NCBI GenBank assembly: GCA_963745835.1
Contig: CAVUZH010000024.1
Span: 288,001 to 352,000 of the forward strand
Reading direction: 5' to 3'
DNA from: an uncultured delta proteobacterium
Lineage (GTDB): Bacteria; Desulfobacterota; Binatia; UBA9968
Length of the DNA stretch: 64,000 nt
Positions within the stretch are counted from its first letter, which is position 1. Each line of letters starts with the position of its first letter. Shown one piece after another: positions 38,525 to 59,794 of the stretch. A program made the translations under genes and the position numbers. The notes under the pieces are model-generated. The model searched no databases. It was not told the origin of the DNA and was given only the letters and a program-made list of their open reading frames with translations.

Positions 38525-38805
38525 GAGTGACGGAGGAGCGAATTATCACGTGGACTCGGCGCGGCCGAATACGGTCGGCCGGGATCGTGATCCTGAACAA
38601 GGCGAGGAAGAAGAACCCGAGGCTGGCGCATTGGTCCCAGGTTACTCGCGGAGGTTACGGGGCCGGAGGTGAAGCCGGTGCCGCCTTTTTTCTCCAAGGT
38701 ATCCGAAGACACTCTCGATCACAGCCCGGAATTTACAATGAGATATCATTCCCCGGCTTTGGTGATGAAATCCGCGTCTAAGTCGCCCTCATCCGTTTCG
38801 GTGTT
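38525..38805 (+). repeat. Chimeric remnant: copy of a CBM21 gene segment (about 36315-36385) fused to degenerate copy 4 of the hydrolase 3' region
   Basis: GGAGCGAATTATCAyGTGGACTCGGCGCGGCCGAATACGGTCGG, then GAAGCCGGTGCCGCCTTTT...GATCACAGCCCGGA...CCCCGGCTTT. Confidence 0.8.
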
Positions 38806-39635
38806 CAGTGCTATCCTGCGTGTGCAGAGCACGCTTGTCCGAATGAGTCAAAAAGCTTTTAAGTGCCTCAGGATCTTCTTGCAACGAAAATACCCTAGCC
38901 GGACAATCGGTGGTTGGACGGAGAGTGGTTGCGTCGTGGACGCCTCGGATTAAAAAACCAATATCTAATAGCCAGCGGCCTACGTCCGAAGGAAAGTAAG
39001 CCCGTTCGCGATGTGATTCTGTGATCGGCGCCGAAGATCGCGGAGAGTTTAAAGTCACTTTGATCGCCAGCATTCTTTGACGCGGCTGCCAGCCTATTCT
39101 CTGCGTGACGCGGCAGCCCTTTGATGCGAGTTCTCGAAACTGCGTCAACGCGCCTCCGAGAGGTTCGCAGGGCGTGATCAGATCAAAGATAAAATGGCCG
39201 CCATGCCGCAGATTTCCGGCGACGCGCCGGAGCGCCATGACAAAATCATCAGGGTTCAGCAAATGGTTCAGGGTATCGAAATTCGCCGTGATCAAATCGA
39301 CCGGAAAGGGTAATTGCAAATAGCGAATATCCTGTTGCAAGAAAGAAACCTGTGATGCGCGGCAGTTTCGCATCGCAATCCGCAGCATTTCCGCTGATCG
39401 ATCCACGCCAAACACCGGTACACCCCAACACTGACTCAAGTAGCGGGCAAAGAGCCCAGTGCCACAGCCGATGTCAGCAGCGGAACGAAACGAAATGCGT
39501 GTATCGTTTCACTAGCGCTTCGAAAGCAGCGCGCGTGCCGATGAAGTTAGGAATTCCAAGAGCACGATCATAAGCCGGCGCGAGCCGGCTGTAAGCCCGC
39601 GCGAAACGTTGCGTGGCATTAATCGTGTCGATCAT
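38789..39635 (-). CDS. Class I SAM-dependent methyltransferase; frameshift near 39500
   Basis: YSRLAPAYD N-terminus; ADIGCGTG motif I; GVDRSAEML; NFDTLNHL. Confidence 0.8.
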
Positions 39636-39675
39636 ATCCGCGGCTGCCGTACAAAAAATCTGATCTCCTTAGCCG

Positions 39676-40124
39676 TTAGATATCGATTAACCTCCACCAC
39701 TGACGCAAAGAACTATCGTTAACCAGCCATGTAGTACCAGGCCTTCGATAGTTAAGACCGGCGACAATGTTTATAGGATCGTTATCAAAGAGCTTCTGGT
39801 CAAGCATTTCCTGGTGCCACTTTTGGAGCTCCATCTGCAGCTTTTGAACCAACATCCGTGCAGTTCGTTTGTCCATCCACCTTCCATAAGCATTTTCCAC
39901 TGCACGGAGAAACTCATCAAAAGAACGGCGAAATCTAACCTTCAGATTTAGGTCGCAACTCACGGAGCGCTTATCGGGAGCACCACAGAACCGCCGATGG
40001 CCATCCTTCGCGATCCAACCCTCTTTCGGTGGCCGTTGGGCCGGTGGTTTCGGCGGCGGTTTGGGCGTCGGTGCGGCCGGTCGCGGTTTGAAAACTTCTC
40101 CCAAGGCATTTTCAAAAAGTACAT
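39676..40124 (-). CDS. Hypothetical putative cargo protein with leader MYF(F)ENALGE (homopolymer frameshift after codon 3)
   Basis: GGAGGA RBS plus ATG at 40124; adding one T joins it to ORF 39676-40104; Pro-rich linker. Confidence 0.6.
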
Positions 40125-40179
40125 GGTTTCATCCTCCAGCAGGCTCAGCGTAACCGCCTGATTCGACGGATGTGCCTTC

Positions 40180-57418: not shown

Positions 57419-57670
57419 TCACACCACACCGAGAATCCGTTGAATGGGAACGATCAGTTGTTGCTTGATTCCTTCGACCTCAACAACGGCAAAAGCGCCC
57501 TGCGAACTGCCGCTGTCTGAAATATCAAGAACCTTCCCTTGCAGAAGATCATCTCCGTAAACTTCGAGAAGCAGCATTTGAACATCTGGAACGTAAACAT
57601 CGCGGATTTTGAAATGGACCCAGCGATGCTTTAGTCGAGAAGTCTCGCTCTTGAGTTGTTCCGCAGCCAC
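57419..57670 (-). CDS. Small beta-rich hypothetical protein, first gene of the operon
   Basis: WVHFKIRDVYVPD...LQGKVLDISDSG...AVVEVEG; GTG at 57670 lies just downstream of the sigma-54 promoter; stop abuts the next ATG. Confidence 0.6.
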   Translation of the reverse strand: MAAEQLKSETSRLKHRWVHFKIRDVYVPDVQMLLLEVYGDDLLQGKVLDISDSGSSQGAFAVVEVEGIKQQLIVPIQRILGVV

Positions 57671-57682
57671 ACTGCGCAGTTC

Positions 57683-57699
57683 AGCAAGCGACGTGCCGG
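57683..57699 (-). promoter_or_regulatory. Sigma-54 (-24/-12) promoter for the 38.8-57.7 kb operon
   Basis: Minus strand CCGGCACGTCGCTTGCT (GG-CACG-N6-GC with TTGC); adjacent bEBP gene. Confidence 0.8.
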
Positions 57700-58144
57700 T
57701 TCGGGGCGTGCGTAATAACGAGACGAACCCTAGCAATTTTCGATAGCTGGGCTCTGCGCAGGTTTACGTCGTTGGAAGCAGCTAAGACGATGCAGAAAAA
57801 ATATTCCGGTTCGTATCATGATTTTCCGGAAGACTCTTTCTGCAGGCGGGGAAAAAACTCGAGCGGCGCATTGCTGGCGTGCTTTGCGTAAATTCTGTAA
57901 CCGATACTCCTGCAACCCCGGAGCTGTGATAGTCAAACCCCGTGTTATTCGCTTTTTTCAAATGGGAATAACATTGCAATGCGCCTTCATTCGACCGTTG
58001 TAGTGCGAGCATGCGTCGGGGAAGCTGTGAAAAAATCCCCCCTGATCTCCCTTTACAAAGGCAGAACGAAAACCGCGCGATCGATCATAGGTTAGGATGC
58101 AGGAATCCGAATTGCCGCGGCACCAACATCTAAACGGCGCCAGT

Positions 58145-59794
58145 CTAGCGGTCAACGGTAGAGTTCAGGTGGTACTTGCGCAGTTTGTTATAAACGCTGC
58201 GCGACGTGATACCAAGAAGGCGTGCGGTTTGGGACTGGTTGCCGCGTGTCTTGCGGAGCGCTGCCTCAAGGAGAAGCTTTTCACAAGAAGCAAGCGACCC
58301 ATTGAGCCGCCAGTTGTTCGCATCCAGCAACCTGACAACGGACGAAGTCACCTCGCGCTGTGGCGACGACGCCAGCGGACGATCATCAACGGATCGCGGC
58401 GGCCCGTGAGATTCTTCTCGCAATGCAGGCTGCCAGCGCGATAGTTGTTGCAAAATCTCCGGCGGCAGATCAGCCAGAGTGAGAGGGGCAATATCGTCCT
58501 TTTTAACCAGCGCCTGCCTGACGATATTCTCCAGTTGCCTCACGTTGCCGGGCAGTCCGGCTTCTGCGAGCGCTTCAATGAACTCGTCTTCGACAGACAG
58601 CGGCAGCGCCGGTGCGAGGGCGCGATACTTCTGAAAAAAATAATCAACCAGCGGTCTAATGTCCCCCGGTCTTTCCCGCAATGACGGAGTATGGATCGAC
58701 AGTACGTTGAGCCGGTAAAAAAGATCTTCGCGAAAGTTCTTTTCTTTCACCATCTGCTCGAGAGCCCGGTTGGTTGCGGCAATGACTCTTACATCGACGG
58801 ACGTTTCGTCGTCCTCGCCAACGCCCAAGACGGTCTTTTCTTGCAGCATGCGCAACAGCTTGGACTGTAGCCCATCCTCCAGTTCGCCGATTTCGTCAAG
58901 AAAGAGAATTCCGCCATGCGCGGAACGAACCAGGCCTTTTCGATCGCGATTCGCACCCGTGAATGCGCCGCGTATGTGGCCGAATAGTTCACTTTCAGCT
59001 AAGCCCGCGCTGATGGCGCCGCAATTGACTGCGACGAAAGGGCCGCTGCGGCGTTTCGGGTCTAAGGCATGAATAGCATGGGCCAACAGTTCCTTGCCCG
59101 TACCAGTCTCACCCGTAAGCAGGATGGGGAGGTCGCTAAGAACACTGACTCGGAGAACTGTGCGAAACACCGCCAGCATTGATTGGCTTTCCCCAACAAT
59201 CCCCGCCTGGATCATATTCTCTTTGATGCATCGCTCATCCTCCTCCCGTCGTGCTTCGGCCTGAAAGAGCTGAACGAGCAGCTGGAAAAGTTCGGACTCA
59301 AAATCTGATCTCGAGCTATCCAACAAATTGGATGCGCCGGCTACAAGGGGCAAGCAGCGAGTCCGTATCGGCCAATTGTGAGCTCCGTCTGCATAAGCCA
59401 ATATGCCAAGTCCGGAGCCTTTAAGAGCATGCAGAGCGTCCAGCAGAGATGCGTTTGGGCCAAGCTCGTCGTCCAATGCGACCAGAAGAACATTGGCGCC
59501 AGACGTGGCGCGCGCTCCTCCGACTTCGTTGATATCACTAAGCCACCTAGGGGTAGCGCCGCACTGCGCGATGATTTGCTCAAGGCGCGAGCGGTTAAGG
59601 TCCCCACGATCAAGCAGCATAATCGTAGGGGGTGAACTATGCGTGGGTATTAGGTTGGAATTTGACCGATAGTCTGCGGGAGAACTTGACAGAGCTTTCG
59701 GCTTGGTTGGCTGACTCATCGGCACGCTGGTCATCTTTCGGCGTGTGCGTAACTTCGAAGCTGTGATCAAAGCTGATCGCATCGGTGTCGACAC
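58145..59794 (-). CDS. Sigma-54-dependent transcriptional activator (degenerate receiver-like domain, AAA+, Fis HTH)
   Basis: GETGTGKE, ELFGHIRGAFTGA, LFLDEIGE, FREDLFYRLNV, PGNVRQL and GNQSQTARLLGI; the true start may be further downstream. Confidence 0.95.
   Translation of the reverse strand: MSTPMRSALITASKLRTRRKMTSVPMSQPTKPKALSSSPADYRSNSNLIPTHSSPPTIMLLDRGDLNRSRLEQIIAQCGATPRWLSDINEVGGARATSGANVLLVALDDELGPNASLLDALHALKGSGLGILAYADGAHNWPIRTRCLPLVAGASNLLDSSRSDFESELFQLLVQLFQAEARREEDERCIKENMIQAGIVGESQSMLAVFRTVLRVSVLSDLPILLTGETGTGKELLAHAIHALDPKRRSGPFVAVNCGAISAGLAESELFGHIRGAFTGANRDRKGLVRSAHGGILFLDEIGELEDGLQSKLLRMLQEKTVLGVGEDDETSVDVRVIAATNRALEQMVKEKNFREDLFYRLNVLSIHTPSLRERPGDIRPLVDYFFQKYRALAPALPLSVEDEFIEALAEAGLPGNVRQLENIVRQALVKKDDIAPLTLADLPPEILQQLSRWQPALREESHGPPRSVDDRPLASSPQREVTSSVVRLLDANNWRLNGSLASCEKLLLEAALRKTRGNQSQTARLLGITSRSVYNKLRKYHLNSTVDR

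Follow-up and report, generated by a model that had tools for sequence, protein, structure and literature searches.

To our knowledge, the protein shells and domesticated virus parts known from bacteria all come from the HK97 and tailed-phage world or from bacterial microcompartment (BMC) proteins. Tailless viruses with double jelly-roll (DJR) capsid proteins, such as PRD1- and PM2-type phages, virophages, polinton-like viruses and adenovirus, belong to another structural lineage. Here a bacterial gene cluster is described whose proteins are compared with both groups. It lies in a 64,000-nucleotide stretch of an uncultured delta proteobacterium (assembly GCA_963745835.1, contig CAVUZH010000024.1, positions 288,001 to 352,000 of the forward strand), which is called the window below and in which all positions are counted from its first letter. 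The assembly comprises 7.28 Mb in 25 contigs, with 97.1% completeness and 9.33% contamination. The initial annotation of the window had read the cluster as a virus-derived type of protein-cargo module without genome functions, and this reading is supported both by the predicted folds and by the homologous loci in other genomes. The locus is best explained as a DNA-free, jelly-roll capsid-like shell, triggered by sigma-54 and filled with lytic enzymes, for which the probability is estimated at about 0.55.

As in the tailless DJR viruses, a protein predicted to have two jelly rolls is encoded beside a putative single-jelly-roll protein with an insert, whose best matches are mavirus and adenovirus pentons, and a cysteine peptidase and wall-degrading enzymes are found in the same locus. 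Unlike these viruses, the locus has no packaging ATPase, replication gene or integrase, and its proteins have no sequence membership in a capsid family. Moreover, its peptidase is transglutaminase (TGase)-like and not adenain-like, its control is by host sigma-54, and its payload is apparently protein. Encapsulins share with the locus a chromosomal location, the lack of genome-packaging genes and, for the candidate cargo of the locus, a set of enzymes with a short shared peptide beside the putative shell gene. They differ in fold, which is HK97 in encapsulins and jelly roll here. The locus also has several putative shell paralogues, a scaffold-like repeat protein and a peptidase; its tag is N-terminal, and its candidate cargo is lytic instead of consisting of metabolic or iron/sulfur enzymes. 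A third comparison is with tailocins, extracellular contractile injection systems (eCIS) and gene transfer agents (GTAs), which likewise have a virus-like structural module without autonomous replication, are regulated by the host and are likely released by lysis. The locus has none of their sheath, tube, baseplate, portal or terminase genes, and it would be of capsid and not tail origin, from the jelly-roll and not the HK97 lineage.

The virus-like particles of the wasp Venturia canescens are a domesticated nudivirus carrying proteins and not DNA (PMC6054256). The idea is shared with the proposed reading of the locus, in which a cell would keep a set of virus structural genes to wrap proteins; the wasp is a eukaryotic host and its virus lineage is unrelated. 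Cellular proteins with two jelly rolls per chain are also known; peptidylglycine alpha-hydroxylating monooxygenase (PHM), PNGase F and DUF2961 are named as such families in PMC8812541. The two-jelly-roll protein described here is similarly found in a cellular genome. In contrast to those families it has no conserved metal or catalytic residues, and it is encoded inside an operon of several paralogues with tagged cargo. In the literature searched, which included few subscription journals, no description of such a system was found, nor of a bacterial counterpart of the Venturia particles.

Jelly-roll-like proteins and their predicted assembly

The intact proteins of a Nitrospira locus (L025) were used as the reference for reading frames in the window, and the L025 homologue of about 460 aa was modelled for the two-domain protein. 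The AlphaFold2 model, built with 34 sequences, had a predicted local distance difference test score (pLDDT) of 84 and a predicted template-modelling score (pTM) of 0.82. Two similar eight-stranded sandwiches were found in it, each with a helical insertion. In a Foldseek comparison with the PDB, 24 matches were obtained at E ≤ 1e-3, the best of which was the capsid protein of EhV-201 (8.4e-6). Other DJR capsid matches within this threshold were SGIV, PBCV-1, PR772 and vaccinia D13. The vertical single jelly-roll capsid protein of SH1 was matched as well (2.6e-4, probability 0.97), and the capsid proteins of HHIV-2 (1.2e-3) and STIV (3.1e-3) fell just outside the cut. At the level of fold, the ~460-aa protein is thus predicted to contain two eight-stranded jelly rolls in one chain, of the DJR type. 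Among the matches listed, strong members of the family form 447 clusters at 50% identity. In the ESM Atlas, the nearest clusters were mostly viral hypothetical proteins (0.94-0.97). The nearest named clusters were the PRD1 P3 and PM2 P2 capsid Pfam families at 0.75-0.77, which is below the reliable range and is taken as a lead only.

The neighbouring 340-aa protein is intact in the window. Searches identified 2545 relatives at E ≤ 1e-3 among 5070 candidates, typically 57-64% identical, none of them with a Pfam domain or an informative name. In its AlphaFold2 model (37 sequences, pLDDT 77) the inserted domain (about residues 85-225) exceeds 90 and the conserved sandwich is weaker. The top Foldseek matches in the PDB were the mavirus penton protein (2.3e-3), the capsids of Flock House and Nodamura viruses, and D13. 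These were followed by the Orf virus scaffold, PR772 and the adenovirus penton base (6.6e-2), with Cascade subunits interspersed. Against the viral models of BFVD, four matches below 1e-3 were found, the best at 8e-5, and these include a penton and a mavirus minor capsid protein. A MELD virus penton was matched at 9.9e-5, and CRESS-virus capsids came next. The model therefore weakly matches a penton- or capsid-like single jelly roll. Both outcomes agree with what had been predicted for the 51-55 kb proteins, in that the ~460-aa model is nearest to DJR capsids and the 340-aa model is weakly penton- or capsid-like.

Modelling also supports self-association of the 340-aa protein. When three copies of residues 9-340 of the window's protein were modelled together, a score of 0.56 was obtained, and the best of 3 controls gave 0.03. 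In calibration, 20 of 30 proteins solved as one-chain pairs attained the score mark, as did 1 of 23 solved as single chains, counts which are only a rough guide here since the 340-aa model used its own alignment and three copies. The three-copy runs agree in at least 49% of contacts, with a partner pLDDT of at least 79. The predicted interface places residues 239-263, 291-293 and 308-311 against 12-18, 48-53, 69-78 and 326-334. This is a head-to-tail contact between the most conserved segments, as would be expected of a ring or lattice.

Four beta-sandwich proteins had been annotated between 51.2 and 55.0 kb. All four genes are present, and three of them are broken ORFs in this copy. Intact relatives hold one protein each of ~320 aa, ~460 aa (two-domain), ~260 aa and ~170 aa. 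The ~260-aa protein is a single-unit paralogue of the two-domain protein, with which it cross-matches by BLAST. A C-terminal pattern common to the 340-aa and paralogue families is visible by eye and is not significant. The paralogue and ~170-aa families were merged by single-linkage BLAST clustering, a merger that fused ORFs may explain. No family was assigned to the structural proteins in Pfam, NCBIfam, PHROG or PADLOC, whether window ORFs or intact L025 homologues were used. Profile searches of the PDB with the 340-aa, two-domain, peptidase-motif and ~170-aa families returned only chance-level rows (E ≥ 0.27).

Conserved core, its regulation and its distribution

Between 38.8 and 59.8 kb almost every long ORF lies on the minus strand (Table 1). 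The initial annotation had treated 38789-59794 as one cluster. All of its listed elements, from the bacterial enhancer-binding protein (bEBP) through to the methyltransferase, were recovered by ORF, Pfam and tblastn evidence. Its extent has to be divided: the conserved core covers 49.2-59.8 kb on the minus strand and stops near 49.2 kb, and a variable gene array follows at 39.7-48.7 kb. Starting from the bEBP, the core consists of the promoter, a small protein, a TGase-like peptidase, an Ala/Pro-rich protein, a small basic protein and a repeat protein. After these come the 340-aa protein, the ~460-aa two-domain protein, the ~260-aa and ~170-aa proteins, a LAS-motif gene and a 455-aa protein that matches no family. 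The flanks of the island are ordinary, with an amidohydrolase and a major facilitator superfamily transporter on one side and a CBM_21 protein on the other.

Table 1. Features of the locus in the window, with positions, strand and remarks
Feature	Position	Strand	Remark
Sigma-54 activator (bEBP)	58145-59794	-	Sigma54_activat 4.2e-64, AAA_lid_14 4.1e-15, HTH_8 4.4e-13
Two inverted repeats upstream of promoter	57791-57844, 57943-57973	.	Repeat search
-24/-12 site, CGGCAC-N5-TTGC	57684-57698	-	One mismatch to consensus; just upstream of small gene
Small acidic protein, first operon gene, ~71 aa in relatives	57419-57670	-	Start codon uncertain
TGase-like Cys-His-Asp peptidase	56871-57418	-	PF01841 1.2e-12; frame break near 56945
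Ala/Pro-rich protein	56221-56877	-	One hydrophobic stretch, Kyte-Doolittle 1.72 at residues 43-61
Small basic protein, ~113 aa in relatives	55754-56083	-	42% identical to L025 protein; no family match
Y/G/E/P-rich repeat protein, isoelectric point 4.1	55020-55719	-	Frame break near 55672
340-aa protein, intact	53942-54964	-	N- and C-terminal sandwich parts flank a variable insert (~80-225)
Two-domain protein, ~460 aa in relatives	52473-53810	-	tblastn with L025 protein; four frames here
Single-unit paralogue of two-domain protein, ~260 aa in relatives	51693-52531	-	Frame break near 52200-52240
~170-aa conserved protein	51233-51659	-	Frame break near 51410
LAS/M15-type zinc-peptidase-motif protein	50699-51236	-	H-x2-G-x-A-x-D ... 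D-H-x-H; frame break near 50900
~455-aa conserved protein, last core gene	49209-50598	-	Frame break near 49440; no family match
161-aa charged, probably coiled-coil protein	48681-49166	-	Poorly conserved; other loci gave no tblastn match
Variable array of candidate cargo genes	39676-48647	-	After 161-aa gene
M-(x)-Y ORF, weak OmpA-like	47676-48647	-	Looser leader pattern
M-(x)-Y ORF, Aspzincin_M35	46614-47516	-	Y-G-E-P at residues 12-15
Further M-(x)-Y ORFs	45688-46542, 45221-45598, 42257-42874, 41289-42080	-	Looser leader pattern
FGase-fold ORF	40145-41458	-	Array member
Class I S-adenosylmethionine-dependent methyltransferase	38789-39496	-	Methyltransf_25 4.9e-10; tblastn matches in 20 loci

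When one genome per species was scanned, 58 pattern matches were obtained, of which 53 were confirmed, corresponding to 51 distinct loci, all in metagenome-assembled genomes (MAGs). The core gene order recurs in these 51 loci, which belong to at least seven phyla, so the cluster is not a chance arrangement. Among loci long enough to contain the gene in question, the ~460-aa two-domain protein was found in 41 of 42, the small basic gene (113 aa) in 40 of 41 and the Y/G/E/P repeat protein in 39 of 41. The ~260-aa paralogue and the ~170-aa protein were each found in 39 of 40, the TGase-like peptidase in 37 of 38, the LAS-motif gene in 35 of 38 and the 455-aa gene in 30 of 35. The bEBP stands upstream of the core in 25 of 34 loci, and the small first gene, a short query, was detected in 23 of 38. 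The initial annotation had proposed to look across genomes for a conserved core with variable cargo, and a conserved core with a variable downstream array is what the synteny search returned.

The loci are labelled as Acidobacteriota, Nitrospiraceae (Nitrospirota), Verrucomicrobiota, Gamma-, Beta- and Alphaproteobacteria (Pseudomonadota), Polyangiaceae (Myxococcota), Phycisphaeraceae (Planctomycetota), Calditrichaceae (Calditrichota) and KSB1. In a quick tree of 39 sequences the phyla are intermixed, for example with Calditrichota inside an Acidobacteriota clade (support 99), a pattern to be read with binning errors in MAGs in mind. Within the window's own phylum the gene was found in 1 of 301 genomes, the window's own. 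The family is common in soil metagenomes and, where sources name it, is annotated only as 'hypothetical protein'. In one rhizosphere metatranscriptome (run X20), contigs cover parts of 49200-57450 at 90-99% identity. This is a hint of expression of the relatives in soil, with the reservation that an RNA library may hold DNA.

Two groups of loci depart from this pattern. One locus (L016:10001-10987) has an intact 328-aa homologue of the 340-aa protein alone among housekeeping genes. Its neighbours encode an aldehyde dehydrogenase, a cation antiporter and a phosphofructokinase, and the other core genes are absent within 10 kb. Either the lone homologue is a remnant, or the protein has been put to use here a second time, independently. 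Five loci (L034, L036, L037, L038 and L046) form a deep-branching subgroup in the quick tree (support 99). They encode a larger protein of the 340-aa type, with matches of about 1.2 kb, and tblastn finds no bEBP or small gene upstream. This subgroup may have a variant architecture under different control.

Control by sigma-54, as had been proposed for the window, is indicated at three levels. The bEBP has an unassigned N-terminal region followed by an AAA+ sigma-54 interaction domain, a lid and a Fis-type helix-turn-helix; a -24/-12 promoter precedes the operon; and rpoN is present in the genome (PF04552, 5e-62). The spacer between the bEBP gene and the operon is 474 nt long and contains the -24/-12 element together with two inverted repeats, which from their position are candidate activator binding sites. 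A window-wide scan for -24/-12 elements with up to 2 mismatches found 73 against 68 expected, and this lack of enrichment means that support for the promoter comes from its position and conservation. Of 25 related loci, 12 have the strict pattern upstream of their small gene, and a GG-N10-GC variant is visible there by eye in several further loci.

The first operon gene encodes a small acidic protein, 58% identical to its L025 homologue over 71 residues, for which no Pfam, NCBIfam, PHROG or PADLOC match was found. The TGase-like protein can be placed in the PF01841 superfamily: even the window fragment scores 48.5 bits against a curated cut-off of 23, and C104, H139 and D154 (L025 numbering) are invariant in 38 of 38 aligned sequences. 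The protein may either cleave or cross-link. At the other end of the structural genes, the protein annotated as an M15 peptidase was retained on its zinc motif, in which H70, G73, A75, D77, H164, D166, H167 and H169 are invariant in 22 homologues, and which we take to be that of LAS/M15 peptidases. HMM searches gave it no Pfam M15 match and no PDB profile match, and the assignment rests on the motif. The 455-aa, 113-aa and 71-aa proteins had no match in the family libraries scanned.

The Y/G/E/P-rich repeat protein (Y 16%, G 14%, E 14%, P 13%) has a conserved N-terminus, tandem repeats of the Y-G-Y-Y-G/A-E-P type and a conserved Cys-containing C-terminus. Its hydrophobic-G-(E/Q/D)-x motif has a median of 5 per protein in 42 homologues, compared with 0 per 250 aa in control families. 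A role as a multivalent scaffold is proposed for it. A 129-nt tandem duplication, 77% identical, lies at 55210-55467 inside its gene, and in homologues the motif copy number varies widely, from 1 to 16. The Ala/Pro-rich protein bears Y/G/E motifs at its N-terminus, and in L025 the counterpart of its C-terminal part is encoded by a small gene of its own. It was matched by tblastn in 11 of 39 loci, a low count explained by its low complexity. In L025 (7825-8781) the Ala/Pro-rich protein and the next, 97-aa protein terminate in runs of 6-10 arginines; their window counterparts are fused and have no Arg runs. Binding of nucleic acid, or pairing with the acidic repeat protein, is a possible role of such tails.

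Genes for handling a genome were searched for in the core and around it. Across 30 cores no Walker-A motif is conserved, and 8 scattered chance matches fall in different proteins. Pfam scans revealed no ATPase family besides the bEBP and no FtsK/HerA-type packaging ATPase. In 27 loci, 80 ORFs of at least 120 aa lie upstream of the bEBP, and each Pfam family was seen among them twice at most; those listed have housekeeping or regulatory roles. In the window itself neither a tRNA nor an att-like flanking direct repeat was detected, and no integrase was found. Replication, packaging and integration genes are consequently not a conserved feature of the homologous loci, as judged from 30 cores and 27 upstream flanks, which is in line with the module-only reading of the window. 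No relative was detected by pattern scans of 2.9 million IMG/VR contigs with both families, or by tblastn against 50,697 phage records and 72,556 plasmids.

The window had also been said to match no encapsulin, BMC or eCIS layout, and library scans did not find the defining families of any of these. Sheath, tube, baseplate, portal and terminase matches were absent from Pfam, PHROG and NCBIfam searches of the window and the L025 core, and no sequence belonged to a capsid family of Pfam or PHROG. Pfam gave no BMC-H/T (PF00936), BMC-P (PF03319) or encapsulin match, and no HK97-fold protein appeared among the Foldseek matches listed.

Downstream array and shared leader

The array after the 455-aa gene encodes the candidate cargo, and it also holds several short or broken ORFs. 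The initial annotation had pointed out one N-terminal leader on unrelated downstream enzymes, and this was borne out in other genomes. The leader takes the form M-Y-I/L/V or M-A/S/P-Y-I/L/V at the ORF start. When ORFs of at least 120 aa after the 455-aa gene were counted, the strict form was found on 35 of 113 downstream same-strand ORFs, compared with 0 of 80 upstream ORFs and 0 of 31 downstream ones on the opposite strand (Fisher 8e-10). Of 32 loci, 21 contain one or more leader-bearing ORFs. The candidate cargo proteins have no export signal, and the leader occupies the position of a signal peptide.

For a census of the cargo, 55 candidates were collected, consisting of 47 leader-bearing ORFs and 8 window ORFs. 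A hydrophobic-G-E/Q-P/A motif occurs within the first 60 residues in 16 of these 55, compared with 2 of 80 controls, and it is the same as the repeat unit of the Y/G/E/P repeat protein. Pfam identified OmpA in 8 candidates, Aspzincin_M35 in 7 and Extensin-like_C in 4; VanY, PG_binding_1 and Peptidase_M74 in 2 each; and Amidase_2, Peptidase_M15_4, Trypsin, GH19 and FGase in 1 each. By this census most of the candidate payload is made up of peptidases and of proteins with a peptidoglycan-binding or peptidoglycan-cleaving domain. In the ORF at 47676-48647 and its homologues (for example L025:16173-17072), a Cys cluster of the form G-C-G-x2-C-x-C-x2-C directly follows the leader and is followed in turn by an acidic stretch. 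It may be a metal-binding site or a disulfide knot.

Proposed particle and alternative explanations

From these observations we infer that a closed particle forms, that its cargo is loaded by the leader and that the shell is of viral descent, as well as how the particle is processed and released and what it targets. A signal would activate the bEBP, the -24/-12 promoter would open and the whole minus-strand operon would be transcribed. The ~460-aa double jelly-roll protein would supply the facets of the shell. The 340-aa single jelly roll with its variable insert would self-associate into vertex or surface capsomers, the ~260-aa paralogue would be a further shell subunit, and the ~170-aa protein may be another. 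The acidic Y-G-E-P repeat protein would serve as a multivalent scaffold, for which CsoS2 in carboxysomes and phage scaffolding proteins are analogues. Downstream enzymes would be recruited through the N-terminal leader, whose G-E/Q-P/A motif copies the scaffold repeat. As a maturation enzyme, the Cys-His-Asp TGase-like peptidase would process the scaffold or else the leaders. Breaching of the wall would fall to the LAS-type peptidase, possibly aided by the hydrophobic Ala/Pro-rich protein, and lysis of the producer would free the particles. Neighbouring cells would then receive from them M35 peptidases together with proteins that hydrolyse or bind peptidoglycan. Delivery to the walls of other cells would be the most economical purpose for hydrolases that are unable to exit alone.

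A more specific form of this explanation can be offered only tentatively, namely that a Varidnaviria-type capsid (double plus single jelly roll) without genome functions has been kept by soil phyla and, after release by lysis, delivers peptidoglycan hydrolases and peptidases to the cell wall of competitors or prey. A bolder variant, in which a cellular shell predated and gave rise to the double jelly-roll viruses, has a lower probability. In the first of these forms the system would be a third independent route by which virus parts were domesticated, beside the HK97 encapsulins and GTAs and the tail-derived tailocins and eCIS. A host-controlled jelly-roll shell without packaging or replication genes would be an organelle or weapon of a class new to bacteria, and could serve as a new, programmable scaffold for packaging proteins by means of a very short tag. 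It would also bear on the origin of DJR viruses, either as a structural cellular relative or as the first clear bacterial exaptation of a capsid.

Several results weigh against a shell of this kind. All Foldseek TM-scores are at most 0.3, and rat PHM, a cellular two-jelly-roll enzyme, matches the ~460-aa model at 1.4e-4. With a PHM match this close and TM-scores this low, the fold class is supported and viral capsid ancestry is not. In the 340-aa model, pLDDT over 10-residue blocks of the jelly-roll part ranges from 40 to 85 and is mostly 60-80, and no PDB match falls below 1e-3 (the best E is at least 2e-3, with low TM). Profile comparison by hhalign gave no significant link between the 340-aa and paralogue families (E 0.073, probability below 1%) or between the paralogue and ~170-aa families. 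The evidence for assembly comes from the three-copy model of one protein, the 340-aa one. The leader is present on only about a third of downstream ORFs, where ORF calling is crude. Neither immunity genes nor a receptor-binding protein could be recognised, nor any clear membrane protein, and the core has only one hydrophobic stretch, which is borderline. Nucleic-acid binding is also conceivable, given the Arg-rich tails on proteins of some relatives.

The state of the window copy belongs to the same side of the balance. Compared with the L025 proteins it has at least nine frame breaks in about 8.5 kb. These affect the TGase, repeat-protein, 260-aa, 170-aa, peptidase-motif and 455-aa genes and, three times, the 460-aa gene (near 53340, 52880 and 52691). 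The conserved N-terminus of the repeat protein lies in a separate ORF, and at least one cargo gene also appears split. The first 36 kb of the window hold mostly long intact ORFs. Homopolymer runs were considered as the cause and rejected, with a run of at least 5 in only 2 of 8 junction stretches. Logan contigs from three soil-metagenome runs (X1, X2 and X4) match the region at 90-99% identity. In those of X1 and X2 one additional G follows 56944, where the peptidase gene is broken, and pieces that cross other breaks show 1-5 gaps. Four X1 and X2 pieces are listed for the 340-aa gene, which is intact; three are gapless and one has 1 gap. By these alignments, which cover contigs of related strains, the relatives appear intact, and the window copy may be inactive through decay or mis-assembled.

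Among the alternatives, the one that survives best, and which is nonetheless unlikely, is that no closed shell forms. The jelly-roll proteins would then form oligomers like those of lectins or TNF/C1q, as part of a new system for export or for contact-dependent toxins, and the leader would be the secretion signal of polymorphic antibacterial effectors. Variable wall-degrading enzymes and peptidases behind one tag do resemble polymorphic effector arrays, and the self-association predicted for the 340-aa protein fits a ring as well as a shell. Jelly rolls are also common in carbohydrate-binding and TNF-like proteins, and cellular relatives are described in PMC8812541. On the other hand, it is capsid proteins from at least nine different viruses, and not lectins, that match best in structure. 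No signal peptides, clear transmembrane proteins or energising ATPase were found in the core, and a disordered multivalent repeat protein with a dedicated peptidase suits the morphogenesis of a shell better than an export system.

It is quite unlikely that the locus is an integrated or defective virus from an unrecognised tailless jelly-roll lineage, whose genome functions would be hidden in the 455-, 113-, 71- and 170-aa proteins and whose lysis and accessory genes would be the downstream enzymes. Such a virus would account for the capsid-like folds, for the several core proteins without an assignable function, and for the patchy spread over phyla that mix on the tree; peptidoglycan hydrolases are, moreover, normal phage lysis genes. 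It is opposed by the lack of a conserved P-loop in the 30 cores, of a recurrent integrase or replication family upstream, of att repeats or a tRNA in the window, and of relatives in the IMG/VR, phage and plasmid collections scanned. The border of the core is formed by a cellular-type sigma-54 activator (25 of 34 loci) and its promoter, and a phage would have no need for a set of different wall hydrolases sharing one N-terminal tag.

An encapsulin-like storage compartment inside the cell, which would hold peptidases and hydrolases inactive until a developmental step and would have no role in attack, is improbable. The logic of a cargo tag and a scaffold-like repeat protein would suit it, as would the harm that M35 peptidases could do in the cytoplasm, and sigma-54 activators often run developmental or stress programmes. 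Little would be gained from such storage, however, since peptidoglycan hydrolases and OmpA-like binders have no cytoplasmic substrate. Cargo without export signals would reach the wall only after lysis or delivery, and the conserved LAS-type motif in the core suggests that the wall is breached.

Finally, there is very little to recommend cellular enzymes of the PHM or PNGase F type in a metabolic or peptide-modifying operon: PHM structures make up about half of the top Foldseek list (1.4e-4 to 3e-3), but PHM copper sites have His and Met ligands and thus cannot be conserved in a family in which none of the 50 invariant positions (34 sequences) is His, Cys or Met, and the locus combines a repeat protein and a peptidase with three to four paralogues of structural type and has no cofactor or substrate genes.

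Two observations concern the left edge of the island. Beyond the methyltransferase gene, a 269-aa ORF (37337-38146, minus strand) has the papain-like motifs Q-G-x-x-G-x-C (close to the N-terminus), G-G-H-A and N-S-W-G. It has no Pfam match at E ≤ 0.001 and no M-Y leader, and could be one more peptidase belonging to the array or have no relation to it. Around this gene (36314-36918 and 38530-38689), direct repeats of 49, 24 and 85 nt were found to be 94-96% identical. Their first copies lie in and after the CBM_21 gene (36022-36666), and the arrangement looks like a local partial duplication.

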